This document shows, in pieces, positions 13,436 to 29,795 of a stretch of 64,000 nt of DNA. The notes under the pieces were generated by a model. That model ran no database searches. It was not told where the DNA came from and saw nothing but the letters and a program-made list of their open reading frames with translations. How positions within the stretch are numbered: the first letter of the stretch is position 1; every line of letters starts with the position of its first letter. The stretch is from an uncultured Actinomycetes bacterium (GTDB taxonomy: Bacteria > Actinomycetota > Thermoleophilia > Gaiellales > JAICJC01), in the NCBI GenBank assembly GCA_963760755.1, contig CAVXEE010000003.1, positions 525,634 through 589,633 of the forward strand. The letters run 5' to 3'. The position numbers and the translations under genes were made by a program.

Positions 13436-13473
13436 GCCTCACCTGGGCGAACCTCGACCCGGGCGAGGCGGAG

Positions 13474-13508: not shown

Positions 13509-13517
13509 TGTTGCCGG

Positions 13518-15145: not shown

Positions 15146-15181
15146 GGCTAGTTTCCTATAAAGTCGATTGCCATACTTGAG

Positions 15182-15234: not shown

Positions 15235-15966
15235 CTAGGCGGTCTGGCGGGCGTGGCCGCCCAGGTAGAGCTGGGCCATGCGCGGGTCGGCCAGGAGCTC
15301 CGCCCCGGTCGCCGCGATGGCCACCGTCCCTGCGTCCATGACCGCCCCGCGGTGGGCGATGCCGAGGCCTGCGCGGGCGTTCTGCTCGACGAGCAGGATG
15401 GTGTGGCCCTCGTCGCGGTTGAGCGCCGTGATCGTCTCGAACACGAGGTGGCGCGCCTTGGGATCGAGCCCCATCGACGGCTCGTCCATCAGGATCAGCC
15501 GCGGCTCGAGCATCAGTGCGCGGGCGATCTCGACGATCTTCTGCTGGCCGCCCGAGAGCGATCCGGCCCGGTCGCCGCGGCGATTGGCCACGAGCGGGAA
15601 GCGCTCGGCCACCGCCTCGGCCCGCCGCCGCACCTCGGCCGAGTCGCGCAGGATGTGCGCGCCCATGAGGATGTTCTCCCACACCGTCATCCCGGCGAAG
15701 AGGCCGCGCTCCTGCGGCACGTGCACGACGCCGCGGCGCAGCACCGCGCCGGGCGAGAGCCCCGCGATGTCCGTGCCGTCGAGCAGGATCTGACCCTGAC
15801 GCGGTCGCAGCAGGCCGGAGATGGTGCGAAGCACGGTCGACTTGCCGGCGCCGTTCGGCCCCACCAGGCATGTGATCGTGCCGGGCGCGAGCGCGAGCTC
15901 GACCCCGCGCAGCACGTCGGCCGCGCCGTAGCCCGCCCGCACCTCGCGCAGCTCGAGGACGCTCAC
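15235..15966 (-). CDS. livF: branched-chain amino acid-type ABC transporter ATP-binding protein
   Basis: GPNGAGKST, LSGGQQKIVEIARAL and LILMDEPSMGL. GTG start at 15966 overlaps the livG stop (GTGA). The track ORF extension to 16068 is read-through. Confidence 0.85.
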   Translation of the reverse strand: MSVLELREVRAGYGAADVLRGVELALAPGTITCLVGPNGAGKSTVLRTISGLLRPRQGQILLDGTDIAGLSPGAVLRRGVVHVPQERGLFAGMTVWENILMGAHILRDSAEVRRRAEAVAERFPLVANRRGDRAGSLSGGQQKIVEIARALMLEPRLILMDEPSMGLDPKARHLVFETITALNRDEGHTILLVEQNARAGLGIAHRGAVMDAGTVAIAATGAELLADPRMAQLYLGGHARQTA

Positions 15967-16694
15967 GTGCCCAGGTACGCGTCGAGGACGGCCGGATCCT
16001 GCTGCACCGCCGCGGGTGGCCCCTCGGCGATCTTGGAGCCGTGGTCGAGCACGATCACCGGATCGCACAGCCGCATGACCGTCGGCATCGCGTGCTCGAC
16101 GATCAGGAGCGTCAGGCCGCGCTCGTGCAGCTCGCGGATGTGGCGCTCCATCGTCTCGACCATCACCGGATTCACACCCGAGGTCGGCTCGTCGAGCAGC
16201 ACCAGGCGCGGCCGGCCCATCAGCACCGACGCGAACTCGAGCAGCTTGCGCTGGCCGAACGAGAGCTGGTCGGCGCGGGCGTCCCGCAGGCCCGCGAGGC
16301 CGAACTCGTCGAGCAGCTCGACGGCGCGCTCGCCGTCCGCGCGCGGTGCGGCGGCACGCAGCAGGCTGCGGCGCGGCTGCTGGATCGCCGCGATCATGTT
16401 CTCGACCAGCGTCAGGGAGCCGAACACGCGCGCCTGCTGGAACGTGCGCGTGAGCCCCCGCCGGCAGAGCGCCGTCGGATCGGCCCGGCGCACGCGCCGC
16501 CCGGCGAACGTGACCGAGCCGGCGTCGGCCTTCATGTAGCCGGTGATCAGGTTGAAGAGCGTCGTCTTGCCCGAGCCGTTGGGGCCGATCAGCGCGGTCA
16601 CGGTGCCCTCGGCAACGGCGAGCGAGCAGCGGTCGACGGCGGCGACGCCGCCGAAGCGCTTCGTCAGGCCCTCGACCTCGAGGATCGCGGTCAC
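15963..16694 (-). CDS. livG: branched-chain amino acid-type ABC transporter ATP-binding protein
   Basis: C-terminal 243 codons of track ORF 15963..17840. GPNGSGKTT, LSFGQRKLLEFASVL and LVLLDEPTSG. GTG 16694 overlaps the livM stop (GTGA). Confidence 0.85.
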   Translation of the reverse strand: MTAILEVEGLTKRFGGVAAVDRCSLAVAEGTVTALIGPNGSGKTTLFNLITGYMKADAGSVTFAGRRVRRADPTALCRRGLTRTFQQARVFGSLTLVENMIAAIQQPRRSLLRAAAPRADGERAVELLDEFGLAGLRDARADQLSFGQRKLLEFASVLMGRPRLVLLDEPTSGVNPVMVETMERHIRELHERGLTLLIVEHAMPTVMRLCDPVIVLDHGSKIAEGPPAAVQQDPAVLDAYLGT

Positions 16695-17710
16695 GTCGCC
16701 GCCCCGGTCATCTCGGCCCTCGGCCCGTCGGCGGTGTGCGCCCCGTTCGGCGAGCGCCGGGCGGCGACCAGATCGCGCAGCGACGGAAGGATCCCGCGCG
16801 GCAGGAGCAGCATGACGACCAGGAAGATGGCCGCGTACGCGACCAGGTAGAGCTCGCTCGCGCCCTGGCTGAACGCCAGGTACTGCTGCGCGGGGACGAG
16901 GATGAGCGCGCCCAGCGTCGGCCCCCAGATCGTGCCGCGACCGCCGAGGAAGGCCATCAGCACGACCCCGATCGTGACGAGCGGGTCGACGGCGAACTGC
17001 GGGTAGATGAAGCCGATGTAGTACGCCCAGATGCCGCCGGCCATCGCCGTCAAGCCCGCGCTGAGCGCGAAGGCGACGAGCTTCGCGTAGGTCACCTGCA
17101 CGCCGAGGCCGCGCGAGCGGTCCTCGTCGTCGCGGATCGTGAAGAGCATCAGGCCGAGCTTGCCCGTTGCGACGTACCACGAGATCAGGACGGCAAGCAC
17201 GTACACGGCCACCATCGCGAGGTAGAACGGCCGCTCGAAGGTCGAGTTGGGGAAGGGCGGCAGCGGCATCACGAGGCCCTGGGCGCCGTTGGTGAGCGAG
17301 TGCAGGTTGAAGGCGAGCTGCTGGACGATGAAGAGCATCGAGATCGTGACGATGGCGAACGTCGCGGCCCGCGTGCGCACCGCCACCCACGCGAACGGCA
17401 GGGCGACGACGGCGACCCCGAACCCGACCGCCGGCAGCACGGCGAACGGGCGGTACCCACCGCCGATGCCGATGTGCTGGAACACGATCGCCTCGCCGTA
17501 GGCGCCCATCCCGAAGAAGGCCGCATTCCCGAGGGACAGGTAGCCCGAGAAGCCACCGAGGATGTTCCAGGCCGTCGCGAGCGCCGCGTACATCACCGTG
17601 AAGATGGCGATGTTCACGACCCACGGCTCGGTGAACAGGAACGGGAACGCCAGGAAGACGGCGGTGAAGCCGATGCCGCGGGCCAATCCGAGCCGGGTCA
17701 GCGGTCTCAC
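16691..17710 (-). CDS. livM: branched-chain amino acid-type ABC transporter permease
   Basis: Track ORF is 16691..17866. Hydrophobic LivM-like sequence starts at VRPLTRLGLARGIGFTAVFLAF (GTG 17710). Codons 17711-17866 have low third-position GC and a junk-like sequence, so the start is uncertain. Confidence 0.75.
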   Translation of the reverse strand: MRPLTRLGLARGIGFTAVFLAFPFLFTEPWVVNIAIFTVMYAALATAWNILGGFSGYLSLGNAAFFGMGAYGEAIVFQHIGIGGGYRPFAVLPAVGFGVAVVALPFAWVAVRTRAATFAIVTISMLFIVQQLAFNLHSLTNGAQGLVMPLPPFPNSTFERPFYLAMVAVYVLAVLISWYVATGKLGLMLFTIRDDEDRSRGLGVQVTYAKLVAFALSAGLTAMAGGIWAYYIGFIYPQFAVDPLVTIGVVLMAFLGGRGTIWGPTLGALILVPAQQYLAFSQGASELYLVAYAAIFLVVMLLLPRGILPSLRDLVAARRSPNGAHTADGPRAEMTGAAT

Positions 17711-17891
17711 AAGAGCACGTCCGCCCGTGGGATTCGTCGTGAGGCGCAGGGTGCGGTGGCTGCGGGAAGGATCGAAAGGCGAGCGGAGCGCAGACGTGGC
17801 CGGAGGCCACGATGAGCACCGCACGCCGCGTGGGACGCACCCGCAGACGGCGCGAACCAGCCGCAACAGAAGCCGACGGGCGGATGGGCTC

Positions 17892-18770
17892 TCACAGCCG
17901 GCCTCTCTCGCTCGTGCCGAAGAGCCCCTGCGGTCGCACGACGAGCACCGCGATCAGGATGACGAAGAACACCATCGACGACCACGTGGGCGAGATCGTC
18001 GCCGCCAGCACCGACTCGGACACGCCCATCACGAGCGCCGCCACGACCGCGCCGGTGAGGCTGCCCAGGCCGCCGAGCACGATGATCGTGAGCAGCCGCG
18101 AGATCAGGTCGTAGTGGCTGCCCGGGTTGAACGGCTCCACCATCCCGAACACCGCGCCCGCGGCCGTCGCCGTGGCGACGCTGATGCCGAAGCCGTAGGC
18201 CGACACGCGCTCGGCGTCGACGCCGAGGAGGCGGGCCGAGGTCGGGTTCTGCACCGTCGCCCTGATCGCCCGGCCGAGCCGCGTGCGGTGCAGGACGAGG
18301 TAGAGGGCCGCCAGGACCACGCCCGACACCCCGAACGCGGCCAGCCGCACGACCGCGATCCGGTAGGCGCCGATCGTCAGCGTGTCGTTCACGTAGCTCG
18401 GCAGGGTCGCCCGGTATGTGGTCGTGTAGATGACGCTGAGGATGCCCTCGAACGCGAGCGCGATCGCCCACGTGACGAGCAGCGACAGCTCCTCGCGCTC
18501 GTCTGAGCGCAGCGGCCGGAGGAAGACGTACTGGAGCACGACCCCGACCGCGAAGGCGGCCGGGGTCATGAGCAGGATCGAGACGAACGGGTCGATGTGG
18601 AAGTCGGTGAAGAGCGTGTAGCTGACGTACGCCCCGGCGACGATCATCGCCCCTTGGGCGACGTTGATCACCCGCATGACCCCGAAGGCCAGGGTCAGGC
18701 CGCTCGCCATCAGGGCATAGACGCCGCCGGTGAGCAGGCCGAGGATGACCGCCTGAATGACGAGGTGCAA
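17892..18770 (-). CDS. livH: branched-chain amino acid-type ABC transporter permease
   Basis: 292 aa. MHLVIQAVILGLLTGGVYALMASGLTLAFGVMRVINVAQG is a typical LivH N-terminus. Confidence 0.85.
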   Translation of the reverse strand: MHLVIQAVILGLLTGGVYALMASGLTLAFGVMRVINVAQGAMIVAGAYVSYTLFTDFHIDPFVSILLMTPAAFAVGVVLQYVFLRPLRSDEREELSLLVTWAIALAFEGILSVIYTTTYRATLPSYVNDTLTIGAYRIAVVRLAAFGVSGVVLAALYLVLHRTRLGRAIRATVQNPTSARLLGVDAERVSAYGFGISVATATAAGAVFGMVEPFNPGSHYDLISRLLTIIVLGGLGSLTGAVVAALVMGVSESVLAATISPTWSSMVFFVILIAVLVVRPQGLFGTSERGRL

Positions 18771-18795
18771 CCGACTTGCCTCGAGCTATGGGTGC

Positions 18796-20061
18796 CTAGC
18801 CGCCCCACGGCGGCTTGGGGATGACCGGGGCCGCCAGCGCCTGGGCGGGCGGGTACACCGGCAGGAGCTTGCCGCCGATCCACTCGGTCAGGATCGCACT
18901 GCCGGACGGCGCGCCGTACTTGTCCCAGCTGAGGTTGCCCTCGACCGTCGGCCACGATCCGGAGTGAAGCGACTTGATGATGGTGGCATTGTCGATCTTG
19001 CCGGTCTTCTTCGCCACCTCGGCCACGACCTCGCCGACGGCGTACGCCTCGGCCGAGCCGGAGTCGATGTTGGCCGGCGTGCCGCCGTACTTGGCGTTGT
19101 AGGCCTTGATGAACGCCTGGTTGCCGGGCGCCTTCGAGTTCGGGAACCAGTCGCCGCAGCTGAAGATGCCGTTGACGTTCTTGGCACCGACCTTGCTGGG
19201 GAACTCCACCGGCGAGTTGGCGCCGTTGGCCTGGAACAGGAACTTCGGGCTGAACCCGAGCTGTACCATCGCGTTCACCATCGAGTAGGCGTCGTCGGAC
19301 TGCGTACCTGCGAACACCATGTCCGGCTTGGCGGCGGCCATCTTCTCGACCACCGGCGTCAGGTCGGACATCTCGGGCGGGTAGACCTCCTTGAACACGG
19401 TCTTGATCCCCGCCGCCTCGAACTGGAGGCGCGCGCGCTCGGCGATCGGCGCCGAGAACGGGTCGTCGAGCTCGGGATATGCGGCCGTCTTCGGCCGCTG
19501 GCTCGCGGGCAGCGAGAGGATGTACTTGACGAACGGGTCGCCGCAGTTCACGACGGGCGCCGGCTGGACGAAGAACACGTTTCCGAGCTTCTCCTGGAAC
19601 ACCAGCGGGCCGCCGCCCGAGGGCTCGGGGAAGGCATAGTTGTACCGCGAAGCGACGCGTGCCGCCGGGGCCGTGAGAAGCGTCGAGAACGGCCCGAAGA
19701 CGAGGTCGACCTTGTCGCGCGTGATCAGGGTCTGGTAGTTCGTGACCACCTGGTTGGGGCTCGATGCGTCGTCGACGATCTTCAGCTGCACCTTGCGCCC
19801 GAGGATGCCCCCGTGGGCGTTCACCTGGTCGGCCCAGAGCTTGTACCCGAGCTCCGCCGCGTGGCCCGGATCCGAGAAGTCGCCGGAGAACGACAGCGAG
19901 ATGCCGATCACGAGCGGCTTCGTCGTGCCCGCGCTCGAGCCGCCCCCCGATCCCCCGCCGCACGCCGCAGTTGCCACGATGGCCAGTGCGGCCAGCGCCA
20001 GTGAGACCTTGTGTGATGCGACCCTCACGACGACTCCTCTCCCGTCGGGGAGGCGACGCAC
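18796..20061 (-). CDS. ABC transporter substrate-binding lipoprotein (LivK/Leu-Ile-Val-binding family fold)
   Basis: 421 aa. Lipobox LAIVATAAC-GGG, then PLVIGISLSFSG, GGILGRKVQL and DLVFGPFST. A start at a downstream GTG (near 20025) is possible. Confidence 0.8.
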   Translation of the reverse strand: MRRLPDGRGVVVRVASHKVSLALAALAIVATAACGGGSGGGSSAGTTKPLVIGISLSFSGDFSDPGHAAELGYKLWADQVNAHGGILGRKVQLKIVDDASSPNQVVTNYQTLITRDKVDLVFGPFSTLLTAPAARVASRYNYAFPEPSGGGPLVFQEKLGNVFFVQPAPVVNCGDPFVKYILSLPASQRPKTAAYPELDDPFSAPIAERARLQFEAAGIKTVFKEVYPPEMSDLTPVVEKMAAAKPDMVFAGTQSDDAYSMVNAMVQLGFSPKFLFQANGANSPVEFPSKVGAKNVNGIFSCGDWFPNSKAPGNQAFIKAYNAKYGGTPANIDSGSAEAYAVGEVVAEVAKKTGKIDNATIIKSLHSGSWPTVEGNLSWDKYGAPSGSAILTEWIGGKLLPVYPPAQALAAPVIPKPPWGG

Positions 20062-20090
20062 CGGGTGGTGACGCCGCCTGCAACACGTCT

Positions 20091-20104
20091 TGCAATCGGT
20101 TGCA
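20091..20104. promoter_or_regulatory. LacI-type operator O1 TGCAATCGGTTGCA
   Basis: 6 of 7 symmetric pairs. It starts 2 nt downstream of a TTGACA(20135..20130)-17-TAGGGT(20112..20107) promoter that reads into the liv-type operon. Confidence 0.6.
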
Positions 20105-20149
20105 TAACCCTAGTTCCTTGGCCCGTGCATGTCAACGGCATCCGCATGT

Positions 20150-21112
20150 CTACGCCCGCACGCCGCTTGCGGGGGTGCCGAGACCGTCTGCGACAGGGTC
20201 GGCGTCATCCGCCATCTCGAACCCGGACCGGCCCGCCTCGACCTCGAGCAGCGAGGCGAAGTCGACGCCCGTGTGGCCGGCGTCGATCGCCTCCTGCACC
20301 AGCCCGCGCACGAGCTGCATCGTCGGCAGAGGGACGCCCATCTCGGCGCCGGCGTCGAGGCCGAGGTCGAAGTCCTTGCGCAGGAGCTCGAGGGTGAACG
20401 TGGGCGTGTAGGTGCGGTTGACATAGGCGGGCGTCTTGTAGCGCGTGAAGGTGGAGCCCATCACGCTCGCGTTGAGGAACTCAAAGAACTCCCGCCGCGG
20501 CACTCCGCCCCGCTCCGCCAGCACCGCGATCTCGGCCAGCGACTCGGCGACGACGCCGAGGAACAGGTTGTGGCAGATCTTCACCAGCCGGGCGGCATCG
20601 CCCTCGCCGACGTAGGTCACGCCCTCGCCGAAGTGCTCCAGGTACGGCAGGGCGGCCTCGTAGGCGCCCCGCGGCCCGGACGCCACCACGGTCAGGCGGC
20701 CGGCCGCGACGACCTTCGGGTTGCCGCTCACCGGCGCTGCCAAAAGCGCCGTCCCGCGCGTGCTGGCGACGGCGCGCACGGCCGCCGACGCATCCGCCGA
20801 CACCGTCGAGGAGTCGACCAGCACGGCCGGCGCCGCGTCGGCCCGCGTGAGCACGCCGCCAGGCCCCGTCGTGACCGCCTCGAAGTCGTCCGAGCCGGCC
20901 ACCATCGTGAAGACGATGTCGCGGTCGGCGAGATCGGCCGGCGTGTCGACGATCGTGGCGCCGAGCCCGGCCAGGGGCTCCGCCTTCTCGCGGGTGCGGT
21001 TCCACACCGCCACGTCGCAGCCCGCGGCCAGCAGCCGCTCGGCCAGCCGGTACCCCATCCTGCCGGCGCCGATCCAGCCGACCGCCCCGGTTGCCGCCCT
21101 TCCGTCGTTCAC
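20150..21112 (-). CDS. beta-hydroxyacid dehydrogenase family oxidoreductase (3-hydroxyisobutyrate / 6-phosphogluconate dehydrogenase-like)
   Basis: Rossmann motif VGWIGAGRMGYRLAERLLAAG and the downstream PVSGNP. Start set at GTG 21112, preceded by GGGGAGGGGAG. The track ATG 21196 adds 28 unlikely codons. Confidence 0.75.
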   Translation of the reverse strand: MNDGRAATGAVGWIGAGRMGYRLAERLLAAGCDVAVWNRTREKAEPLAGLGATIVDTPADLADRDIVFTMVAGSDDFEAVTTGPGGVLTRADAAPAVLVDSSTVSADASAAVRAVASTRGTALLAAPVSGNPKVVAAGRLTVVASGPRGAYEAALPYLEHFGEGVTYVGEGDAARLVKICHNLFLGVVAESLAEIAVLAERGGVPRREFFEFLNASVMGSTFTRYKTPAYVNRTYTPTFTLELLRKDFDLGLDAGAEMGVPLPTMQLVRGLVQEAIDAGHTGVDFASLLEVEAGRSGFEMADDADPVADGLGTPASGVRA

Positions 21113-21150
21113 GTCCTCGATCTCCCCTCCCCGGACGCGGCCGGTGTCGC

Positions 21151-21164
21151 AGCAATCGATTGCA
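21151..21164. promoter_or_regulatory. LacI-type operator O2 AGCAATCGATTGCA (12-bp perfect core)
   Basis: Lies in the divergent region between the dehydrogenase (start 21112, minus) and the lacI-family gene (21229, plus). Confidence 0.6.
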
Positions 21165-21228
21165 ACTACTATATCGATGGCGCTCGCGGGCGTCAAACAC
21201 CCTGTTCCCGGCGAAAGTAGAGTGAGGC

Positions 21229-22326
21229 ATGTCGCAAAGGCCGGTCACGATGCGCGACGTCGCCCGTACGGCCGGGGTGCACCCCGGCACGGTCTCGCGC
21301 GTGCTCAACCCGCGCACACGCGCCCTCGTGAACCCGGCCACCGCCGACCGCGTCGAGCGCGTCGCCCGCGAGATGGGCTACTCGCTGAACCCGATCGCAC
21401 GCGGCCTGAAGACGCGGCGCACGTTCAGCGTCGGCGTCCTCATCCCCGATCTGACGAACCCGCTCTTCCCGCCGATCATCCGCGGCATCGAGCGCGTGCT
21501 CGACGCCGCCGGCTACACGGCGCTCGTCGCCTCGACCGACGGCGAGCCCGCCCGCGAGCGCCAGCGGCTCGAGGCGCTGATTGCGCGCCAGGTGGACGGC
21601 TTCGTGATCGCGACCGCCGTGCGCCACCACCCCGTGGTGGCCGAGGCGATCGCGTCCGACCTGGCCGTGGTGCTCGTGAACCGCACGATCGAGGGCGAGG
21701 GCGTCTTCGCGGTCGTCCCCGACGACCGCCGCGGCTCGGCGCTCGCGGTCGACCACCTGGCGACGCTCGGCCATGCCCGTATCGCGCACATCGCCGGCCC
21801 GCAGGCGACCACGACCGGCCTCCTGCGGTACCGCGGCTTCGTCGAGGCGATGGAGGACGCTGGCCTGCCGGTCGACCGCACCCTGATCGCGCAGGGGGAG
21901 GCGTTCACGATCGCCGCCGGCACGACGGCCGCGCGCGACCTCCTGGCCGCGGCCGACCCGCCGACCGGGATCGTGGCGGCAAACGACCTGCTCGCGCTCG
22001 GCGCCTACACCGCGCTGCACGAGGCCGGTCTGCGCTGTCCGCACGACGTCTCGGTGGTCGGCTTCAACGACATGCCCTTCGCCGATCGCTTCGCCCCGCC
22101 GCTCACGACCATCCACATCCCCCACGGCCAGATCGGCGCCCGCGCCGCCGAGCTCCTGCTCGAGCGGATCGAGGACCCGGCCGCGACCCCGCAGACGCTC
22201 GTGTTCGAGCCGACCGTCAGGGTGCGGGGGTCGACGGCGGCGCCGCCGCGGGCCCGGCGTCCGCGCCCGGGCGGTTCAGGTGCGACTGCGTCTCGCGGAT
22301 CCCCGGAAGCTGGCCCGACACGGTGA
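21229..22326 (+). CDS. LacI/GalR family transcriptional regulator
   Basis: 365 aa. N-terminal HTH VTMRDVARTAGVHPGTVSRVLN followed by a periplasmic-binding-fold sugar-binding-like domain. Confidence 0.9.
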   Translation: MSQRPVTMRDVARTAGVHPGTVSRVLNPRTRALVNPATADRVERVAREMGYSLNPIARGLKTRRTFSVGVLIPDLTNPLFPPIIRGIERVLDAAGYTALVASTDGEPARERQRLEALIARQVDGFVIATAVRHHPVVAEAIASDLAVVLVNRTIEGEGVFAVVPDDRRGSALAVDHLATLGHARIAHIAGPQATTTGLLRYRGFVEAMEDAGLPVDRTLIAQGEAFTIAAGTTAARDLLAAADPPTGIVAANDLLALGAYTALHEAGLRCPHDVSVVGFNDMPFADRFAPPLTTIHIPHGQIGARAAELLLERIEDPAATPQTLVFEPTVRVRGSTAAPPRARRPRPGGSGATASRGSPEAGPTR

Positions 22327-23557
22327 AGTAGTTGCTGCGGCCGGCCACGAGCAGATCCTCGGCCGGGAAGCGCGTGATCACCTCGCAGCCGGTGTCGGTG
22401 ACCACGAGCTGCTCCTCGATCCGGGCGGCGCCGAAGCCGTCGGACGTGGGCCAGAACGTCTCGAGCGCGAACACCATCCCCTTCTCGATCACCTCGGGGT
22501 GGTCGAGCGACACGAGCCGGCTGATGATCGGCTTCTCCCAGATCGAGAGACCCACGCCGTGCCCGAACTGGAGCGCGAAGGCGGCCTCCTCGTTCGGGAA
22601 GCCGAACTCCTGCGCGCGCGGCCACACGCTCGCCACCTCGCCGGTGGTGACGCCCGGCTTGACCAGGGCGATCGCACGGTCGAGCAGGTCGCGGCAGCGG
22701 CGGTAGGCGTCGACCTGCGCGCGCGAGGCGCTGCCGATCGCAAACGTGCGGTAGTAGCAGGTGCGGTAGCCGAGGTGGCTGTGCAGGATGTCGAAGTAGG
22801 CCGGGTCGCCGGGCCGCAGAACACGGTCGGAGTAGACGTGCGGGTGCGGGTTCGCGCGCTCGCCCGAGATGGCGTTCACGCCCTCGACGTGCTCGGAGCC
22901 GAGGTCGTAGAGCACCTTGCTGACGAGGCCGACGCACTCGTTCTCGCGCATGCCCGGCCGCATGCTGCGGTAGAGCTCGTCGTAGGCGGCGTCGACCATC
23001 ATGCACGCCGTGTCGAGCAGGGTGATCTCGTCGGCCGTCTTGATCACCCGCGCGGACTGCATCAGCTGCTGGCCGTCGACGACCTGCAGGCCGCGGGCCT
23101 GGAGGGCGAAGAGCACGGCCGGCTCGACCACGTCGACGCCGACGGGCTCTGCCTGCAGCCCGCGCTCCTCGAGCGCACGCCAGATCTTCTCGGCCACGTC
23201 CTCCGCGCGTCCGCTCTCGGGCGACATCGCCCCGCGCATCGTCGAGATGCCGGCGGGCGTGCGCCCCTCGAGCCACGGGCAATAGAGCTCGTGGTGGCGG
23301 GCGGCCGACCCGAAGTCCCACACGATCGGCTCGGCGCCGCGGGCAAGCAGCGAGAAGCGGGCCAGCTTGTCCATCGCCCAGGTGCCGATGTGCGTGGCGG
23401 TGACGTAGCGGATGTTCACCATGTCGAAGCAGAGCAGTGAGCCCATCTCGGAGCGCTCGAGCAGGCCGCCGATCCGCTCGAGTCGCTGCCGCCGCAGCCG
23501 GTCGACGTCGACCCGCTGCTCCCAGTCGACCGCGTTCAGCCCGAACGTCTTGCCCAT
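22217..23557 (-). CDS. M24 (pita-bread fold) hydrolase, creatinase / Xaa-Pro dipeptidase / ectoine-hydrolase-like
   Basis: 446 aa. GDPAYFDILHSHLGYRTCYYRTF, FGHGVGLSIWE and VFALETF ... ARIEEQLVVT (metal ligands of M24). Confidence 0.75.
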   Translation of the reverse strand: MGKTFGLNAVDWEQRVDVDRLRRQRLERIGGLLERSEMGSLLCFDMVNIRYVTATHIGTWAMDKLARFSLLARGAEPIVWDFGSAARHHELYCPWLEGRTPAGISTMRGAMSPESGRAEDVAEKIWRALEERGLQAEPVGVDVVEPAVLFALQARGLQVVDGQQLMQSARVIKTADEITLLDTACMMVDAAYDELYRSMRPGMRENECVGLVSKVLYDLGSEHVEGVNAISGERANPHPHVYSDRVLRPGDPAYFDILHSHLGYRTCYYRTFAIGSASRAQVDAYRRCRDLLDRAIALVKPGVTTGEVASVWPRAQEFGFPNEEAAFALQFGHGVGLSIWEKPIISRLVSLDHPEVIEKGMVFALETFWPTSDGFGAARIEEQLVVTDTGCEVITRFPAEDLLVAGRSNYFTVSGQLPGIRETQSHLNRPGADAGPAAAPPSTPAP

Positions 23558-23573
23558 CGTGCCACCTCTCCAG

Positions 23574-24551
23574 TCAGGCCGGCTCGCCGACGCCGAGCCG
23601 CTCGCGCACGCTGCGGGCGATCGCGTCGGGGCCCGGCAGGTATGCGTCCTCGAGCGGGGGGCTGTAGGGAATGGGCGTGTCCGGTGTCGTCAGCGTCCAC
23701 ACGTCGTCGAGGTCGCCGAGCGCGCGCTCGGCCACGGCCCCCACGAGGCCGCTCGCCCAGCCGCCGAGCTCGGGCCCCTCCTCGACGGCGACCATCCGGC
23801 TCGTCTTGCGCACCGACGCGACGACCGTGTCGTGGTCGAGCGGGCGCAGGCTGCGCAGATCGATCACCTCGGCGTCGACGCCGGCGGCCGCGAGCGTCTC
23901 GGCGGCCGCGAGCGCGTCGTGCACGCCCCGCATCACCGAGACGATCGTGACGTCGGTTCCCGGCCGCACCACCCGCGCGGCGCCGATCGGCACGGGCGCG
24001 TCGCCCACATCGCCGGTCACCGGGTAGAGGCGCTTGTGCTCGAGCACGATCACCGGATTGTCGTCGCGGACCGCGGCCTCGATCAGGCCGCGGGCGTCGT
24101 CGGGGAACGCCGGGGCGACGATCTTCAGGCCGGAGACGCCCTGCAGCCACGTCGCCGGCGTCTGCGAGTGGATCGCGCCGAACCGGCCGCCGCCGCCGAC
24201 CGCGCAGCGCACGACGAGCGGCACGGGCGCCTGCTCGTTGGACATGTACCAGTACTTGGCGGACTGGTTGACGAGGCTGTCCATCGCCAGGGCCATGAAG
24301 TCGCCGAACATGATCTCGACCACCGGGCGCAGGCCGGTGACGGCGCTGCCGAAGGCCGCGCCGGCGAGCGCGAGCTCCGAGATCGGCGTGTCGAACACGC
24401 GCTCGTCGCCGAACTCCTCGGCCAGGCCGGGGGTGGCCTTGAAGACGCCGCCGGCGGCCGCGATGTCCTCTCCGAAGAGCACGACGCGCTCGTCGCGACG
24501 CATCTCGGCCGCCAGCGCGTCGCGCACGGCGGTGCGCATATCGGTGCTCAT
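23574..24551 (-). CDS. thiamine-diphosphate-dependent 2-oxoacid/acetoin dehydrogenase E1 component, beta subunit
   Basis: C-terminal 325 codons of track ORF 23574..25361. MSTDMRTAVRDALAAEM, VFDTPISELALAG and the transketolase-like pyrimidine and C-terminal domains. ATG 24551 overlaps the E1-alpha stop (ATGA). Confidence 0.85.
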   Translation of the reverse strand: MSTDMRTAVRDALAAEMRRDERVVLFGEDIAAAGGVFKATPGLAEEFGDERVFDTPISELALAGAAFGSAVTGLRPVVEIMFGDFMALAMDSLVNQSAKYWYMSNEQAPVPLVVRCAVGGGGRFGAIHSQTPATWLQGVSGLKIVAPAFPDDARGLIEAAVRDDNPVIVLEHKRLYPVTGDVGDAPVPIGAARVVRPGTDVTIVSVMRGVHDALAAAETLAAAGVDAEVIDLRSLRPLDHDTVVASVRKTSRMVAVEEGPELGGWASGLVGAVAERALGDLDDVWTLTTPDTPIPYSPPLEDAYLPGPDAIARSVRERLGVGEPA

Positions 24552-25534
24552 CCGGCGTACTCCGCGGCGGCGACGGCCGGATCGGGGTACGGGTCGCCGA
24601 CCGCGGCCGCGACACCCGCCTCGACCTCGGCGCGCACGGCGGCCTCGCAGGCCGTGATCTCCTCGAGCGCGACCCCGGCCTCGGAGAGCCGGGCGGCGGC
24701 AACGGTGAGCGGGTCGCGCACGAGCCACTCGTCCAGCTCGCCCTCGGGGCGGTAGACGCCCGGGTCGGTCTTGGAGTGGCCCAGGTGGCGGTAGGTGAGG
24801 CACTCGAGGAACGCGGGCCCGTCGCCGCGGCGGGCGTGGTCGACCGCCCGCTCGGCCACCGCGTGCACCAGCTCGACGTCGTTGCCGTCGACCTTCTCGG
24901 CCGGGATGTCGTAGGCGGCGGCGCGGGCGCGGATGTCGCCGCCGGCCGTGACCGCTGCCATCGGCGTGAACTCGCCGTAGAGGTTGTTCTCGCACACGAA
25001 CAGCACCGGCAGGCGGCGCACACGGGCGAAGTTCAGGCACTCGTGGAAGTAGCCGTGGTTGGTCGCGCCGTCGCCGAAGAAGGCGACCGCGACGCCGCCG
25101 GTGCGCTGCAGCGAGAGCCCGGCGCCGGTGGCGGCGGCGATGCTCCCGCCGACGATTCCGAAGCAGCCGATCAGGCCGTGGTCGAGGTCGATCACGTTCA
25201 TCGACCCGGCCCGGCCACCGCAGACACCGGTGCTGCGCCCCATCAGCTCGGCCGCGAGCGCGCGCGGCTCGGTGCCCATCGCGAGCGCCGCGCCATGGCC
25301 GCGGTAGGTCGCGGCCACGCGGTCGCCGGGCGCGAGCGCGGCACAGACGCCGACGGCGCACGCCTCCTGGCCCGTGTACAGGTGCACCGTGCCGTGCACC
25401 TCGCCGCGCAGGAACAGGCGCTGCATCTCGTCCTCGAACGCGCGGATGCGCACCATCTGCCCGTACAGGTCGAGCGGGCTGCCCCGCTCTGCGGCCGCCA
25501 CGGCGGGGCTCGCCCCACCCGAAGCTTCACTCAC
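24548..25534 (-). CDS. thiamine-diphosphate-dependent dehydrogenase E1 component, alpha subunit
   Basis: YRGHG and the TPP motif GDGATNHGYFHECLNFA ... ENNLYG. Start set at GTG 25534, preceded by GGAAGGAGA. The track ATG 25573 would lie inside the operator. Confidence 0.85.
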   Translation of the reverse strand: MSEASGGASPAVAAAERGSPLDLYGQMVRIRAFEDEMQRLFLRGEVHGTVHLYTGQEACAVGVCAALAPGDRVAATYRGHGAALAMGTEPRALAAELMGRSTGVCGGRAGSMNVIDLDHGLIGCFGIVGGSIAAATGAGLSLQRTGGVAVAFFGDGATNHGYFHECLNFARVRRLPVLFVCENNLYGEFTPMAAVTAGGDIRARAAAYDIPAEKVDGNDVELVHAVAERAVDHARRGDGPAFLECLTYRHLGHSKTDPGVYRPEGELDEWLVRDPLTVAAARLSEAGVALEEITACEAAVRAEVEAGVAAAVGDPYPDPAVAAAEYAG

Positions 25535-25568
25535 CCGGTCTCCTTCCGCGGTTGCGGCCTGACGTCCA

Positions 25569-25582
25569 TGCAAACGATTGCA
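25569..25582. promoter_or_regulatory. LacI-type operator O3 TGCAAACGATTGCA
   Basis: 6 of 7 symmetric pairs. It lies 35 nt upstream of the E1-alpha GTG (25534, minus), in the divergent region towards the lyase-like gene. Confidence 0.6.
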
Positions 25583-25746
25583 AAGCGCTCCCGGGTTGTC
25601 AAGCCGCCAACCGCAACGCGACTCCGGTTGCGGCCGGCGCGAGCACCGCGAAAGCGCGTGCGTGTGCGATCAAGAACTAGATTGCGGCCATCGCCGCGCC
25701 GCCGAACACGCTGCTCGTCTCCGGGCACACGCTGACACCGGCCGAC

Positions 25747-27231
25747 GTGGCCGACGTCGCGCTGCGCGGCCGCCCGGTGCAGATCGCCCCGGCGGCGCGC
25801 GGGCGCATCGAGGCTGCTCGGGGCATGCTCGAGCGCGCGCTGGCCGAGGGCCGCCCCGTCTACGGCCTGACGACGGGACTCGGCGCGCGTGTGAGCGAGC
25901 CGGTGGCGCCCGAGCACGCGGCCGCGCAGGCCGCCCGGATCGTGCGCGGCCGGGCGACGGCCGTCGGCGAGCCGCTGCCCACAGCCGCCGTGCGGGCGAC
26001 GCTGCTCGCCCGCCTGAACGGACTCTGCGCGGGCGGGGCCGGGGTCTCGCCGGCGGTCGCCGACACGCTGGCCGCCATGCTCAACGCCGGCGTGCACCCG
26101 GTCGTGCCGCGGACAGGCTCGATCGGCGCCGGCGACCTGTGCCTGCTCGCCCACGTCGCGCTCGTGGTGCTCGGCGAGGGCGAGGCCGATGTGGGCGGGA
26201 CGCGCCTGGCGGGCGCCGAGGCGCTGCGGCGGGCGGGGATCGCGCTCCCCGTCGTCGGCGCCGGCGACGGCCTGGCGCTCTGCAACGCCTCGTCGGTCTC
26301 GGCCGGGGCGGCGGCGCTCGCAGTCGATGCGGCCGACCACCTGCTCGACGCCGTCCAGATCGCGGCGGCGCTCTCGATGGAGGGCTTCCGCGCGGCGGCG
26401 ACGCCGATCCACGCCGACGTGGCCGGCGCGCATCCGGCCCCGGGACAGGAGTGGGAGGCAGCCGGCCTGCGCGAGCTCCTGCGCGGCGGCAGCCTGCTCG
26501 ACGCGGGCGCCTCGCGGCGGCTGCAGGATCCGCTCAGCTTCCGCTGTGCGAGCCACGTGCACGGCGCCCTGCGCTGGGCGCTCGACGTGCTCGCGACGGC
26601 CGTGCTCGGCGCCCTGAACGGCGCGGGCGATAACCCGCTCGTGCTCGGCACGGGGGGTGTCGTGTCGACCGGCAACTTCCACACGCCGGCGCTCGCGCTC
26701 GCACTCGACACGGCCGCGATCGCGGTCGCCCAGACCGCCGGCCCCGCCGCCGAGCGGCCGGCGCGACTGGCCACCGAGCGCCTGAGCGACCTGCCCGCCA
26801 ACCTCACCCGGGGCGGCGAGGGCCGCTCGGGCATCGCGCCGCTCTTGAAGACTGCGCAGGCGATCGCGGTCGAGATCCGCCACCTCGCCGCACCGCTCGC
26901 CATCGACCCCCGCTTCGGGGCCGACGGTGTCGAGGACGACTCGACGAACGCCGCCGCGGGGGCGCTGCGGCTGCAGGCGCAGCTCGGGCTGCTCGAGCGC
27001 CTGATCGCGCTCGAGCTCCTGTGCGCGGCGCAGGCGGTCGACCTGGCGGCGCCCGATCGGCTCGGCAACGGCACGGCGGCAGCGCAGGCCTGCGTACGCG
27101 AGCTGGTGGCGCCGCTCGACGACGACCGGCCGCTCGGCGCCGAGGTCGAGCGGGTGGCGCGCGAGCTCGTGGCGTCGGGCGTCCTGCGCGAGCGCGTCCG
27201 CGAGGCGGTGCGGTGGCCGGACTCGAGCTGA
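25747..27231 (+). CDS. histidine/phenylalanine ammonia-lyase-family protein lacking the canonical Ala-Ser-Gly (MIO) triad
   Basis: 494 aa. VYGLTTGLG, GSIGAGDLCLLAH (HAL has GSVGASGDLAPLA), QDPLSFRC, GDNPLV and TGNFH. Family-like N-terminal residues (TLLVSGHTLTPADV) continue upstream to 25681 with no canonical start. Confidence 0.75.
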   Translation: MADVALRGRPVQIAPAARGRIEAARGMLERALAEGRPVYGLTTGLGARVSEPVAPEHAAAQAARIVRGRATAVGEPLPTAAVRATLLARLNGLCAGGAGVSPAVADTLAAMLNAGVHPVVPRTGSIGAGDLCLLAHVALVVLGEGEADVGGTRLAGAEALRRAGIALPVVGAGDGLALCNASSVSAGAAALAVDAADHLLDAVQIAAALSMEGFRAAATPIHADVAGAHPAPGQEWEAAGLRELLRGGSLLDAGASRRLQDPLSFRCASHVHGALRWALDVLATAVLGALNGAGDNPLVLGTGGVVSTGNFHTPALALALDTAAIAVAQTAGPAAERPARLATERLSDLPANLTRGGEGRSGIAPLLKTAQAIAVEIRHLAAPLAIDPRFGADGVEDDSTNAAAGALRLQAQLGLLERLIALELLCAAQAVDLAAPDRLGNGTAAAQACVRELVAPLDDDRPLGAEVERVARELVASGVLRERVREAVRWPDSS

Positions 27232-28217
27232 CCTATCTGAGCGGGGCAGACATCGACCGCCTGGCGCTCGGCGCCGACGAGATCCTGGCGGCCGTGTCAG
27301 ACGTGCTCGCCGCGCACGGCCGCGGCGAGACCGTGATCGAGCCGCGCGTGCACCTGTTCCCCGGCGGCGGTGCCGACGGGCACTTCAACGTGCTCCGCGG
27401 CGCGCTGCCGCGTGCGGGCGTCGCCGGCGTGAAGGTCGTCGGCGACTACGTCGGAAACGGCGCGCGCGGGCTGCCGTCGGAGCTCGCGCTGCTGACGCTC
27501 CACGACACGGCCACCGGCGCCCCGACGGCGATCCTCGACGCGACCGCCATCACCGCGATGCGCACGGGCGCCGTGACCGCGATCGGCGCCCGCCACCTCG
27601 CCCGGCGCTCGAGCCGCGTGCTCGCCCATATCGGCAGCCGCGGGACGGCCGAGTGGAACGTGCGCCTGCTCTGCGCCGTCCTGCCCGGGATCGAGGAGGT
27701 GCGCATCCACTCGAGCACGCACGAGAACCGCACCGCGCTCGCCGGGCGCCTTGCCGCCGAGCTCGGCCCGCGCGTGCACGCCGTGGACGGCTGGGAGGAG
27801 TGCGTGCGCGGCGCCGACGTCGTGGTCGAGGCCACCCGCCTGGTGACACCCGAGCCGCTGCTGCGCACCGAGTGGATCGCCCCGGGCGCGCTCGTCGTCC
27901 CCTACGGCACGGTGAGCGCCGTCGCCCTCGACCTGACCGACGTGATGGACAAGGTGGTCGTCGACGACTGGGGCCAGGCGCGGTCGGGCCCGCTCGGCGC
28001 GCTGCGGGCGCATGTCGACTCCGGCCGCCTGTCGCAGGACACCCTGCACGCCGAGCTCGGCCAGATCGTGGCCGGCCTGCGGCCGGGCCGCGAGACCGAC
28101 TCCGAGCGCATCCTGCTGTGGCACCGCGGGCTCAGCCTGACCGACATCGCGCTCGGCCGGGCGATGCTCGCGCGGGCGCAGGAGCGGGGCATGGGGACGC
28201 GGCTGCCCTACCGCTGA
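27213..28217 (+). CDS. ornithine cyclodeaminase / mu-crystallin family protein
   Basis: Part of track ORF 27021..28217. GTG 27213 overlaps the lyase gene by 19 nt. AITAMRTGAVTAIGARHLA and LAHIGSRGTAEW (Rossmann). Confidence 0.8.
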   Translation: MAGLELTYLSGADIDRLALGADEILAAVSDVLAAHGRGETVIEPRVHLFPGGGADGHFNVLRGALPRAGVAGVKVVGDYVGNGARGLPSELALLTLHDTATGAPTAILDATAITAMRTGAVTAIGARHLARRSSRVLAHIGSRGTAEWNVRLLCAVLPGIEEVRIHSSTHENRTALAGRLAAELGPRVHAVDGWEECVRGADVVVEATRLVTPEPLLRTEWIAPGALVVPYGTVSAVALDLTDVMDKVVVDDWGQARSGPLGALRAHVDSGRLSQDTLHAELGQIVAGLRPGRETDSERILLWHRGLSLTDIALGRAMLARAQERGMGTRLPYR

Positions 28218-28271: not shown

Positions 28272-29795
28272 CTAGAAGGTCGCCCGGGCCGCGGGCGAGA
28301 AGCCCGACGAGTTGCCGCCCTTGTTCGTGCGAACCTGGAACTTGTACACCCCGGTGCCTGCGCTGGGCGTGTACGTGTAGGTCAGGCTCGTCAGGCCGGT
28401 GCCGGCCGGCGCCGGGTTGAACGTGGTGCTACCAGGAAGCGCGACCTGGACGTCCAGCGTGACCCCGGCGGGCACGGAGGTCGCGATCGTGACGGTGATC
28501 GCCGTGTGGGCGCCGTTCACCGTCGCAGAAGGCGTCACCTTGATCTGCGGGGTGCCGCCGAACGCCGTGCCGACGGTCGAGTTGTAACCGAACGTCCCCG
28601 CCGTGGTGAAGGTGAACGGGAACGAAGTCCCCGGCGCCTGGGAGCCGGAGTCGAACAGGTTCATGCCGCTCGTGTCGGTGATGCTGTGCGCATCGCCGGT
28701 CGCGAACACCCACCGCACCGTGGTCGGCTTCTTCGTCGTACCGGTCGCGAGCGGGATGCCCTGCTGCGACGGCACGGGGCCGCCGTCGTGCACGATCACG
28801 TAGCTCGAGTGGCCCTGCAGAGACGTGAGCCGGCCGATCTTGTTGCCGACGTTCTCGCTGAACCAGGTGTTGCCGTCGGCCCCGGTCACGATGCCGCCCG
28901 GGGACGAGCCCTTCGTCGTAATGCCGAACGACGTCACGGCGCCGGCCGTGGTGACACGGGCGATCGCGTTGGCGCCCTGCTCGGTGACCCAGAGGTTGCC
29001 GTCGGGGCCGCTCGTGATGCCGGTCGGCTTGCCGGGGACCGAGATCTGGGTCACGACCGGGGTTGCGGCGGTCGTGATCTTCGCGACGTGGTTGATGCCG
29101 GGCTCGGCGACCCAGATGTTGCCGTCGGGGCCGCTCGTGATCCGCGCGGGCGATGCCGAGCCGGCAAGGGCGACCCGAGTCTGGACGCCTGCGGGGGTGA
29201 CCCGGAAGACGTCGTTCTTCGAGGTGCCGCTGACCCACAGGTTGCCGTCGGGGCCTGCAGCGATCCGGGTCGGACCGGTGCCCGCGGGCAGCTGCGCCAG
29301 CAGGGTGAACGCATGCGTGTGCACGTCGAACTTGACGACCCTGCTCTGCGCATTCGACACGAAGTAGAGGAAGCCGCCGGGCCCGGCCGTGATGCCGCGC
29401 GGGCTGGTGCCGTCGGCCGCCGGGATTGCGAACGACGTGAACGTCGGCCCGCCGACAACGCGGCCGATGCGGTTGGATGCCGACTCGGTGAACCAGACGG
29501 CGCCGTCGGATCCGGTCGTGATCCCGACCGGGTTGCTCTTGGCCGTCGGGATCGTCGCGAGGGTCACCGCGCCCGTCTTGTTGATGTGGCCGAGCTTGTT
29601 GCTGCCGGCGTTGACGAACCACACATTGCCGTCGCCGCCGACCGTCAGGTCGCCGGGCTGGTTGTTTGTGCCTGGAATCTTGAAATCCACGATCGCGTGC
29701 GTTGCAGCCCCCGCTGGGCCTGCCGAGGCGACCGCGGCCACCGCGAGCAACACGATCGACGCCAGCGCTTTGCCGGCGTGTCGACGATGCGACAT
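28272..29795 (-). CDS. secreted beta-propeller protein with Vgb (virginiamycin B lyase)-like repeats plus a C-terminal beta-rich (cupredoxin/Ig-like) region
   Basis: ATG 29795 is preceded by AGGAGGGAAGG, with signal peptide MSHRRHAGKALASIVLLAVAAVASAGPAGA. Seven or more repeats of G(S/P)DG(N/A)(V/L/I)W(F/V). Confidence 0.7.
   Translation of the reverse strand: MSHRRHAGKALASIVLLAVAAVASAGPAGAATHAIVDFKIPGTNNQPGDLTVGGDGNVWFVNAGSNKLGHINKTGAVTLATIPTAKSNPVGITTGSDGAVWFTESASNRIGRVVGGPTFTSFAIPAADGTSPRGITAGPGGFLYFVSNAQSRVVKFDVHTHAFTLLAQLPAGTGPTRIAAGPDGNLWVSGTSKNDVFRVTPAGVQTRVALAGSASPARITSGPDGNIWVAEPGINHVAKITTAATPVVTQISVPGKPTGITSGPDGNLWVTEQGANAIARVTTAGAVTSFGITTKGSSPGGIVTGADGNTWFSENVGNKIGRLTSLQGHSSYVIVHDGGPVPSQQGIPLATGTTKKPTTVRWVFATGDAHSITDTSGMNLFDSGSQAPGTSFPFTFTTAGTFGYNSTVGTAFGGTPQIKVTPSATVNGAHTAITVTIATSVPAGVTLDVQVALPGSTTFNPAPAGTGLTSLTYTYTPSAGTGVYKFQVRTNKGGNSSGFSPAARATF

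Follow-up and report, generated by a model that had tools for sequence, protein, structure and literature searches.

Three palindromes in a 64,000-nucleotide stretch of DNA from an uncultured Actinomycetes bacterium of the order Gaiellales (contig CAVXEE010000003.1; the whole stretch is called "the window" below), namely O1 TGCAATCGGTTGCA (20091–20104), O2 AGCAATCGATTGCA (21151–21164) and O3 TGCAAACGATTGCA (25569–25582), are predicted with high confidence to be binding sites of the LacI-type repressor encoded next to them. The best explanation, to which we attach an equally high probability, is that this local repressor controls an importer operon, a β-hydroxyacid dehydrogenase gene together with the lacI gene itself, and an operon that encodes both E1 subunits of a thiamine pyrophosphate (TPP)-dependent dehydrogenase and an M24-fold enzyme (E1α-E1β-M24), all of which would form a catabolic unit for a small polar acid that is not a sugar. 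At the level of sequence, the predicted regulatory device is a standard local LacI-family repressor–operator system and displays every feature by which membership in this class is recognized.

Predicted operators and their regulator

The 14-mer consensus of the palindromes, with up to 2 mismatches, has exactly 3 matches in the window, compared to 0.08 expected from dinucleotide shuffles, and 3 matches were reached in none of 100 shuffles. The scan that the initial annotation had proposed, carried out on the 64-kb window, returned only O1–O3, with no extra site even when 3 mismatches were allowed. A weight matrix trained solely on sites from other genomes assigned 25.0, 26.2 and 28.5 bits to O1, O2 and O3, respectively, and 10.5 bits to the next-best position in the window; matches, shuffles and matrix therefore agree with the earlier description of three LacI/GalR-type palindromes with a central CG. 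The consensus of 218 unique sites is a 16-bp palindrome, cTGCAAWCGWTTGCAg, in which the central C and G are each present in 215 sites. Even palindromes of 16–22 bp with a central CG are the norm for LacI/GalR operators (PMC4052901), and the sites described here, even, 16 bp long and centred on CG, are of this type. The distance from the operator centre to the start codon is ~70 bp for O1 and the gene of the substrate-binding protein (SBP), ~45 bp for O2 and the dehydrogenase, ~72 bp for O2 and lacI, and ~41 bp for O3 and E1α, i.e. 41–72 bp, which falls within the range characteristic of LacI/GalR operators (30–140 bp upstream of the initiation codon).

The regulator possesses a helix-turn-helix (HTH) domain of the LacI/GalR family (PF00356, residues 7–52, 45.5 bits at a cut-off of 27) and an effector domain similar to periplasmic binding proteins (PBPs; PF13377: 140.1 bits, PF00532: 123.5 bits). 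Both the HTH and the NPIARGL hinge are highly conserved across 117 homologues, with A, R, G and L of the hinge segment NPIARGLKT kept in at least 80–90% of them. In the structures of PurR and LacI, the hinge Leu inserts at the central CpG of the operator. The combination of HTH, hinge helix and PBP-like sensor with even, CG-centred palindromes that overlap core promoters, and the location of an autoregulated regulator gene beside its targets, are shared with local LacI/GalR/PurR systems such as RbsR, PurR and the LacI-type GntR. Unlike in those systems, the regulon of this genome contains no recognizable sugar enzyme or sugar-type transporter and comprises a Liv importer, an M24 enzyme, a β-hydroxyacid dehydrogenase and a pyruvate dehydrogenase (PDH)-type E1; all NCBIfam equivalog scores are far below the cut-offs. 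Since 96% of LacI-family groups govern carbohydrate pathways and ~4% non-carbohydrate ones, the lack of any recognizable sugar enzyme makes this regulon unusual for the family.

The motif was then followed across 79 loci collected via the regulator and 80 collected via the M24 protein (159 loci, 2.84 Mb; single loci are cited below by L-numbers). With up to 2 mismatches it occurs 240 times in these loci (85 per Mb) and 4 times in 1.16 Mb of 74 unrelated loci fetched for another purpose (3.5 per Mb), a ~24-fold higher rate in the related set. Almost all sites are intergenic (226 of 234 in well-called loci; 128 of the 132 sites found in the 1.38 Mb of the regulator-anchored loci), and they precede genes of SBPs (67), the regulator (67), the dehydrogenase (57), NMT1-like SBPs (18), M24 (16), a C–C hydrolase (16) and E1α (12). 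At least one operator is present in 104 of the 115 loci that bear a LacI homologue, and in 59 loci an operator precedes the regulator's own gene. Two annotated records provide natural controls: on a Streptomyces megaplasmid that encodes the regulator, a single operator lies in the gap between the SBP and dehydrogenase genes, and on Phaeobacter plasmids, which possess the enzyme cluster, the 19 kb examined contain neither a LacI homologue nor, even at 3 mismatches, an operator.

These numbers leave hardly any room for the idea that the palindromes arose by chance or were copied from a repeat element, which has nothing but the short length of the site in its favor: the window contains many more sites than the shuffles predict, the related loci are strongly enriched over the control loci, and conservation is limited to 14–16 bp within diverged flanks. 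We consider it very improbable, if not to the same degree, that the palindromes serve a different, global regulator of the LacI family (CcpA-, PurR- or FruR-like) and that the adjacent lacI gene is incidental. Such a regulator could be envisaged as TGCAANCGNTTGCA is near to the generic LacI-family consensus and a paralogous subgroup of regulators shares the motif, but there is no further site in 64 kb, the sites track the local regulator across phyla and are missing where it is missing, and an operator so often stands before the regulator's own gene.

The paralogous LacI subgroup, 55–61% identical to the regulator of the window, is found in loci L015, L017, L019, L025, L027, L035 and L070, where the palindrome precedes a different operon, which encodes a Liv-type importer, an EamA-like protein, an Amidohydro_2 enzyme, an FAD amine-oxidoreductase-like protein and a C–C hydrolase similar to 2,6-dihydroxy-pseudo-oxynicotine (DHPON) hydrolase. 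In many relatives (L014, L022, L028, L032, L038, L043), two operators share a divergent intergenic region at a distance of 56–80 bp, where each probably serves one promoter; unlike them, the window has single operators only.

Operators and core promoters

Alignment of the three operator regions with those of nine relatives, whose regulators are 70–98% identical, revealed conserved islands amid diverged sequence, which correspond to the operators, the −35/−10 elements and the ribosome-binding sites (RBSs). O1 begins 2 nt downstream of the −10 element of the importer promoter, TTGACA-17-TAGGGT, exactly as the initial annotation had described. A generic promoter scan omits this promoter, as its TAGGGT fits only the actinobacterial TANNNT rule; between 19900 and 25900 the scan identified a single promoter-like site, the dehydrogenase promoter, which ends 3 nt before O2 and had not been noted previously. 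The placement of O2 between the dehydrogenase and lacI genes and of O3 between the E1/M24 and lyase/cyclodeaminase operons was likewise given correctly in the initial annotation. The dehydrogenase (start 21112) and lacI (21229) genes are 116 bp apart, and O2 is located between them, in a region that contains a conserved CTACTATA block; on the + strand this block reads TACTAT, a possible −10 element of lacI, which could put O2 in the spacer of the lacI promoter. O3, between the E1α start (25534) and the lyase-like gene, starts 14 nt after a conserved TTGACA and overlies the −10 region of the promoter in front of the E1 operon, and the stretch between O3 and the lyase gene is not conserved in the nine-relative alignment. 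Located on or just after core promoters, the operators occupy the positions of a repressor that blocks RNA polymerase.

Another conserved block, CGCCTGCAAC (20075–20084), lies between O1 and the RBS of the SBP gene; it is invariant in eight relatives and contains a TGCAA-like half-site ~10 bp from O1.

Gene content of the predicted regulon

Clustering of gene families across all 159 loci supports a predicted core regulon composed of lacI, the Liv-type importer (15235–20028), the β-hydroxyacid dehydrogenase and the E1α-E1β-M24 operon. The regulator co-occurs with the dehydrogenase, M24, a transporter and E1α/E1β in Thermoleophilia, Streptomyces, Streptacidiphilus, Actinocrinis, Kibdelosporangium, Rhodococcus, Burkholderiales and Sphingomonadales, and the gene set is conserved jointly with the motif from Thermoleophilia to Streptomyces, Rhodococcus, freshwater Nanopelagicales and Proteobacteria. 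The synteny comparison called for by the initial annotation thus bore out the core gene set with its operator across phyla, and not the lyase/cyclodeaminase pair, which does not accompany it outside close Gaiellales relatives. Consequently, of the single regulon proposed there for the whole island 18796–28217, the importer, the dehydrogenase, lacI and E1α/β-M24 stand, and the lyase and the cyclodeaminase do not; at its other end, the importer operon extends beyond the supposed boundary at 18796, to 15235.

In the 74 M24-anchored loci where the M24 gene was called, its partners are the dehydrogenase (63), the regulator (41), the Liv importer (~34), split E1 (26–28), a fused E1α-β protein of 728 aa (22), a PDH-type E2 (30; 435 bits at a cut-off of 445), an aldehyde dehydrogenase of the succinate-semialdehyde dehydrogenase (SSADH) type (31; 571 bits at a cut-off of 646), a VOC protein (24) and a GntR regulator (19). 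An alpha/beta hydrolase that 34 loci encode is clearly homologous to DHPON hydrolase (2jbw in the PDB, 166 bits), a C–C bond hydrolase. The type of transporter differs by genome: Liv, NMT1/TauA-like, tripartite tricarboxylate (TTT) or major facilitator (MFS). Streamlined freshwater Nanopelagicales keep only the regulator, importer, dehydrogenase and M24, and sometimes VOC and fused E1, while the order on Phaeobacter plasmids is SBP, acetoin-reductase-like short-chain dehydrogenase/reductase (SDR), M24, E1α, E1β, lipoyl protein, SSADH-type dehydrogenase, E2 and LpdA. Beside the operators, the comparison of loci turned up no further recurrent gene family. A reading of the partner genes of 169, 728 and 418 aa as a Mo-hydroxylase was rejected; they encode the VOC protein, the fused E1α-β and E2, respectively. 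Plasmids with the cluster are represented in PLSDB by 12 from Phaeobacter, 3 from Tritonibacter and 3 from other members of the Roseobacter group, e.g. pP92_e of Phaeobacter inhibens P92 (L239). Cultured strains regarded as candidate carriers of the regulon include Streptomyces sp. NBC_00988, S. xylophagus NRRL B-12029 and Rhodococcus rhodnii NRRL B-16535.

E1α and E1β of the window, both subunits being present together with the TPP-binding motif, qualify as the E1 component of a 2-oxoacid/acetoin dehydrogenase. Their designation as "orphan" in the initial annotation is correct for the window, where we found no homologue of E2, the aldehyde dehydrogenase or VOC (E3 was not searched for), and incorrect for the relatives, where E2 and sometimes E3 adjoin. 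The similarity to acetoin and pyruvate dehydrogenase complexes extends from E1α and E1β, nearest to the PDH type, to the PDH-type E2 of the relatives and the LpdA and acetoin-reductase-like SDR of Phaeobacter. The differences are the lack of E2 in the window and the embedding of the genes with M24 and an SSADH-like dehydrogenase; we know of no described Aco or Pdh operon that includes the latter two enzymes.

The M24 enzyme

The best named relative of the M24 protein is DddP, the lyase of dimethylsulfoniopropionate (DMSP), to which it aligns over its full length, with a score (NF043017, 119.1 bits) well below the cut-off of 600. A comparison of the family profile with the PDB placed the DddP structures of marine Roseobacters (4s00, 4rzy and 4b28 in the PDB) first (105.7 bits), with both the N-terminal and catalytic domains aligned, above prolidases, which match only in the catalytic domain. 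Ectoine hydrolase and creatinase are far more distant: the identity with ectoine hydrolase DoeA was rejected (54.5 bits at a cut-off of 575 and 52.7 at 613), and the label "creatinase/ectoine-hydrolase-like" of the initial annotation has to be replaced.

The M24 protein retains four of the five canonical metal ligands, D256, H333, E366 and E381. The second Asp ligand is replaced by Cys267 in the motif GYRTCYYRT, invariant in 40 of 40 members, at a position that corresponds to D220 of Pyrococcus prolidase and to the third Asp of the FDTD...D segment of DddP; another Asp of DddP aligns to a gap in the subfamily, which lacks the full set of DddP metal ligands. Unlike DddP, the protein is accompanied by the dehydrogenase, E1/E2 and the aldehyde dehydrogenase, and its hosts are mostly soil and freshwater Actinomycetota. 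It defines a distinct subfamily of its own, outside both DddP and DoeA. The family includes at least 8000 database proteins at E ≤1e-30 and at least 584 genomic matches, and its members are 70–87% identical across phyla (Streptomyces, Nanopelagicales, Eremiobacterota, Proteobacteria). Those from Thermoleophilia possess an extra C-terminal extension of ~40 residues. Searches for sequences exactly identical to the M24 protein and the regulator of the window matched no contig on record.

An M24-fold enzyme and a succinate-semialdehyde-type aldehyde dehydrogenase are also found together in ectoine degradation (DoeA/DoeC), from which the present system differs by the lack of DoeB and DoeD homologues and of an EnuR/AsnC regulator, as well as by the low scores on the DoeA models. 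In the full-text literature we found no paper on this gene cluster or on the Cys-variant M24 enzyme, and none linking M24 to sulfonates, S-methylmethionine or pantothenate.

The adjoining lyase–cyclodeaminase module

The lyase-like protein encoded beyond O3 (PF00221, 402 bits) has lost the Ala-Ser-Gly triad from which its relatives form the 4-methylideneimidazole-5-one (MIO) group: it exhibits GSIGAGDL, where histidine ammonia-lyase has GSVGASGDL and ergothionase SSIGEGDI. The alignment hence agrees with its earlier designation as MIO-less and classifies it as an MIO-less member of the aromatic-lyase fold. The absence of MIO is, according to a 2026 bioRxiv preprint (10.64898/2026.04.22.720169), characteristic of trimethylammonia-lyases. 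The best PDB match is to the ergothionase/histidine-betaine trimethylammonia-lyases (6s7j, 218 bits; Shewanella SO_3057 and Swoo_3913), with which the protein shares the one-residue deletion that removes Ala-Ser-Gly; it also has the catalytic Tyr, as well as a Lys that aligns to Lys384 of Td_ETL, the residue that binds the ergothioneine thiolate. Unlike them, it is cytoplasmic and its homologues are mostly paired with an ornithine-cyclodeaminase-family gene, a partner not mentioned in the trimethylammonia-lyase papers retrieved.

Another 79 loci were fetched via the lyase protein (L160–L238). MIO-less homologues, 41–86% identical, occur in Rhizobium, Mesorhizobium, Neorhizobium, Bosea, Burkholderiales, Actinomadura and NC10, and a cyclodeaminase homologue (58–88% identical; 58–69% in Rhizobiales, Burkholderiales, Actinomadura and NC10) is adjacent to them or within a few kb in ~38 of 53 loci; true histidine ammonia-lyases, which contain the triad, have no such partner. 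An OpuAC-type betaine ABC transporter adjoins the lyase homologues in 25 loci, and HutF or MttB in some. In ~30 genomes outside the Gaiellales relatives the pair is accompanied by OpuAC-type transporters, HutF or MttB, and there is no LacI regulator, operator, M24 or dehydrogenase at these loci. Conversely, the pair adjoins the regulon only in ~10 close Gaiellales relatives and is missing from all regulon loci outside them, and in two loci (L003, L012) an unrelated secreted M23-like gene intervenes between O3 and the lyase. Because the pair is found elsewhere with betaine transporters, is absent from distant regulons and can be separated from O3 by another gene, the lyase and cyclodeaminase are probably a separate betaine-catabolic module that adjoins the regulon and does not belong to the core pathway; O3 may or may not influence its transcription here.

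For these reasons we regard it as unlikely that all nine enzymes and transporters of 18796–28217, the lyase and cyclodeaminase included, make up a single pathway governed by the three operators, with ectoine or a cyclic amino acid as a possible substrate. It is true that O3 lies in the divergent E1α/lyase region in the window and in L002, L005, L006 and L068, from where it could affect lyase transcription, and that M24 with an SSADH-like dehydrogenase recalls DoeA/DoeC. These similarities have to be set against the distribution of the pair, its association with OpuAC, HutF or MttB in genomes without the LacI operator, the M23-like gene, the unconserved sequence between O3 and the lyase, and the 52–54 bits of M24 on the ectoine hydrolase models. 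The resemblance to ectoine catabolism that the initial annotation saw in M24 plus ornithine cyclodeaminase joins two unrelated modules, as the separate genomic context of the pair indicates.

The residues TLLVSGHTLTPADV of the lyase (from ~25705) align with residues 2–14 of ergothionase. There is no ATG, GTG or TTG in this frame before GTG 25747, and only ATT 25681, ATC 25690 and CTG 25711 precede it; the protein either starts at a non-canonical codon or is short of its first ~14 residues.

Proposed regulation and candidate substrates

The sites, where they lie and how they are conserved, as well as the families of the genes, are observations, and from these we infer the following scheme of repression, induction and reactions. 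The product of 21229–22326 would bind, as a dimer, the three 16-bp palindromes on or just after the core promoters, and would thereby act on the importer operon (20028 to 15235), on the dehydrogenase gene and the divergent lacI (autoregulation), and on E1α-E1β-M24. With no inducer, RNA polymerase would be blocked, and the transported compound or an early intermediate would free the promoters by releasing the repressor. The regulon as a whole would serve the catabolism of a small, polar organic acid and not of an ordinary sugar. After import, the Cys-variant M24 enzyme could cleave a C–N or C–S bond by hydrolysis or β-elimination, the dehydrogenase could oxidize a hydroxyl group, and the PDH/acetoin-type E1, with E2/E3 from elsewhere in the genome, could convert a 2-oxo or α-hydroxyketo acid to acyl-CoA, while in the relatives the SSADH-type aldehyde dehydrogenase would oxidize an aldehyde fragment. 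Chemical reasoning also allows for an acetoin-type C–C cleavage yielding acyl-CoA and a semialdehyde acid, which fits because of the PDH/acetoin-like E1/E2, the acetoin-reductase-like SDR of Phaeobacter and the constant presence of an aldehyde-oxidizing enzyme.

Several points weigh against this scheme. The order of reactions comes from chemical reasoning only. O3 is not accompanied by a recognizable −10 hexamer, so that the promoter there is called from the conserved −35 element alone. LacI paralogues 57–60% identical to the regulator use the same motif before a different gene set, and cross-talk with them is possible. Given the preponderance of carbohydrate pathways among LacI-family groups, a substrate similar to sugar acids is still conceivable. 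Finally, there is no E2 gene in 64 kb, and E1 may therefore act as a plain decarboxylase or carboligase.

As to the substrate, the candidates are organosulfur compounds, S-methylmethionine, and pantothenate or pantoate, to none of which we would give more than a slight chance. Pantothenate or pantoate comes into consideration as the gene of pantothenate hydrolase (pantothenase) is still unidentified (PMC10393543); the idea is weakened by the requirement of that route for an E1 of the branched-chain 2-oxoacid dehydrogenase type, the window E1 being nearer to the PDH type.

An organosulfur pathway would start from a sulfonium compound, e.g. DMSP or S-methylmethionine, or from a C3 sulfonate, e.g. 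2,3-dihydroxypropane-1-sulfonate (DHPS) or sulfolactate, with M24 as a DddP-like β-eliminating lyase and the PDH-type E1 taking a pyruvate-like product. Among the M24 proteins that are both characterized and structurally solved, DddP is the closest relative, over the full length; many relatives have NMT1/TauA-type binding proteins; the aldehyde dehydrogenase falls into the GabD/SSADH group, which also supplies sulfolactaldehyde dehydrogenases; the dehydrogenase matches the model of sulfolactaldehyde reductase, if weakly (86–103 bits); a flavin reductase and a luciferase-like monooxygenase (LLM) adjoin the cluster in 5–6 loci; and genes of sulfur metabolism follow the importer just downstream in the window. 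Each of these links is weak, however: the DddP score is a fifth of its cut-off, with two of the DddP Asp ligands missing, the LLM protein, at 30 bits, does not look like SsuD, and desulfonation of the SsuD type is not supported, the sulfur genes of the window have a conserved promoter of their own, no operator, and are confined to close relatives, the loci share no recurrent sulfite exporter, and the literature offers no connection between M24 enzymes and sulfonates. We therefore consider this pathway rather improbable.

More generally, and with somewhat less than even confidence, we propose that the LacI regulon marks an undescribed catabolic pathway, widespread in soil and freshwater Actinomycetota, Eremiobacterota and Proteobacteria and also present on Roseobacter plasmids, in which the Cys-variant DddP-like M24 enzyme would cleave an abundant small polar compound, with products feeding a dedicated acetoin/PDH-type complex and an SSADH-type dehydrogenase. 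Candidate compounds would be organosulfur or onium compounds, or a hydroxy-acid amide such as pantothenate. The identity of 70–87% between M24 proteins from Streptomyces to the streamlined Nanopelagicales points to a common environmental compound. The operator delimits precisely, and in a way that experiments can exploit, a set of genes (importer, dehydrogenase, M24, E1/E2 and, in relatives, the aldehyde dehydrogenase) that phyla have kept in common and that soil and freshwater metagenomes contain in great abundance. The repressor and the SBP are direct handles for ligand screening, and the Roseobacter plasmid carriers are genetically tractable hosts for substrate discovery. The inducer, once found, would give a function to thousands of "Xaa-Pro peptidase" annotations and would extend the LacI family by one of its rare members outside carbohydrate metabolism.

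Genes of the window and neighboring features

The window has 72% G+C, and most of its long open reading frames (ORFs) are therefore spurious. Genes were called by codon-position composition (a log-odds caller, unreliable below ~58% GC; low-GC loci were treated by tblastn) and checked with Pfam and NCBIfam (Table 1). All gene families named in the initial annotation were upheld by Pfam.

Table 1. Promoter elements and genes of the regulon and its neighborhood
Feature	Position	Strand	Evidence or remark
Importer promoter	TTGACA 20135–20130, 17 nt, TAGGGT 20112–20107	−	read from the sequence; both hexamers conserved
Dehydrogenase promoter	TTGACG-17-TATAGT, 21168–21196	−	generic scan: 10/12 matches, 0.2 expected; conserved
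E1α-E1β-M24 −35 element	TTGACA, 25597–25602	−	TTGTCAAG invariant in 10 relatives
Two ABC ATPases, livG/livF-like	15963–16694, 15235–15966	−	Pfam ABC_tran, BCA_ABC_TP_C; distal end of importer operon
livM-like permease	16691–17710/17866	−	Pfam BPD_transp_2, 98.8 bits
livH-like permease	17892–18770	−	Pfam BPD_transp_2, 124.7 bits
Periplasmic SBP (Peripla_BP_6)	18796–20028	−	Pfam, 179.5 bits; first gene of importer operon
β-Hydroxyacid dehydrogenase	20150–21112	−	Pfam NAD_binding_2, NAD_binding_11; start moved to GTG 21112
LacI-family repressor	21229–22326	+	Pfam LacI HTH, 45.5 bits; Peripla_BP_3/1
M24-fold enzyme, Cys-variant DddP-like subfamily	22217–23557	−	profile scores, alignment; last gene of E1 operon
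E1β, TPP-dependent dehydrogenase	23574–24551	−	NCBIfam PDH E1 beta, 325 bits
E1α	24548–25534	−	Pfam E1_dh (PF00676), 220 bits; GDG...NN TPP motif present
MIO-less ergothionase-like lyase	25747 (GTG, first canonical start)–27231; homology begins at ~25705	+	
Ornithine-cyclodeaminase-family protein	27213–28217	+	neighboring module with the lyase
Sulfite-oxidase-like Mo enzyme	14075–15145	−	sulfur island
Cysteine dioxygenase type I	13518–14078	−	sulfur island
Sulfatase	11788–13098	−	sulfur island
Stf0 sulfotransferase	10896–11732	−	sulfur island

The starts of three genes were revised relative to the longest ORF, each to a codon that follows a purine-rich RBS conserved in relatives: the SBP (GTG 20028, RBS GGAGAGGAG), the dehydrogenase, and E1α (GTG 25534, RBS GGAAGGAG). 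In the PDB, the best match for E1α is human PDH E1α, and for the SBP there is no closely related structure with an informative ligand. The dehydrogenase belongs to the family of tartronate-semialdehyde reductase, 3-hydroxyisobutyrate dehydrogenase and γ-hydroxybutyrate dehydrogenase (best PDB match 3pef); its best NCBIfam match, 151.6 bits, is under every cut-off. In relatives, the ATPase genes are found in synteny with SBP-livH-livM. The convergent lacI and M24 genes overlap at their 3' ends by 110 bp (22217–22326), as they do in L001, L002, L005 and L006.

Directly downstream of the importer operon, on the minus strand, is the sulfur island (10896–15145). The genes of its Mo enzyme and cysteine dioxygenase have a conserved promoter (TTGACGG, ~16 nt, TATATT, near 15170–15205) without a LacI operator. 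A fourth, weak operator half-site at 15158, before these two genes, was rejected, as it scores 10.5 bits and is not conserved, and the genes have that promoter of their own. At the opposite end of the region, a β-propeller protein of the Vgb lyase family (225 bits) is encoded at 28272–29753 on the minus strand, convergent to the cyclodeaminase gene, a position that is kept in close relatives.

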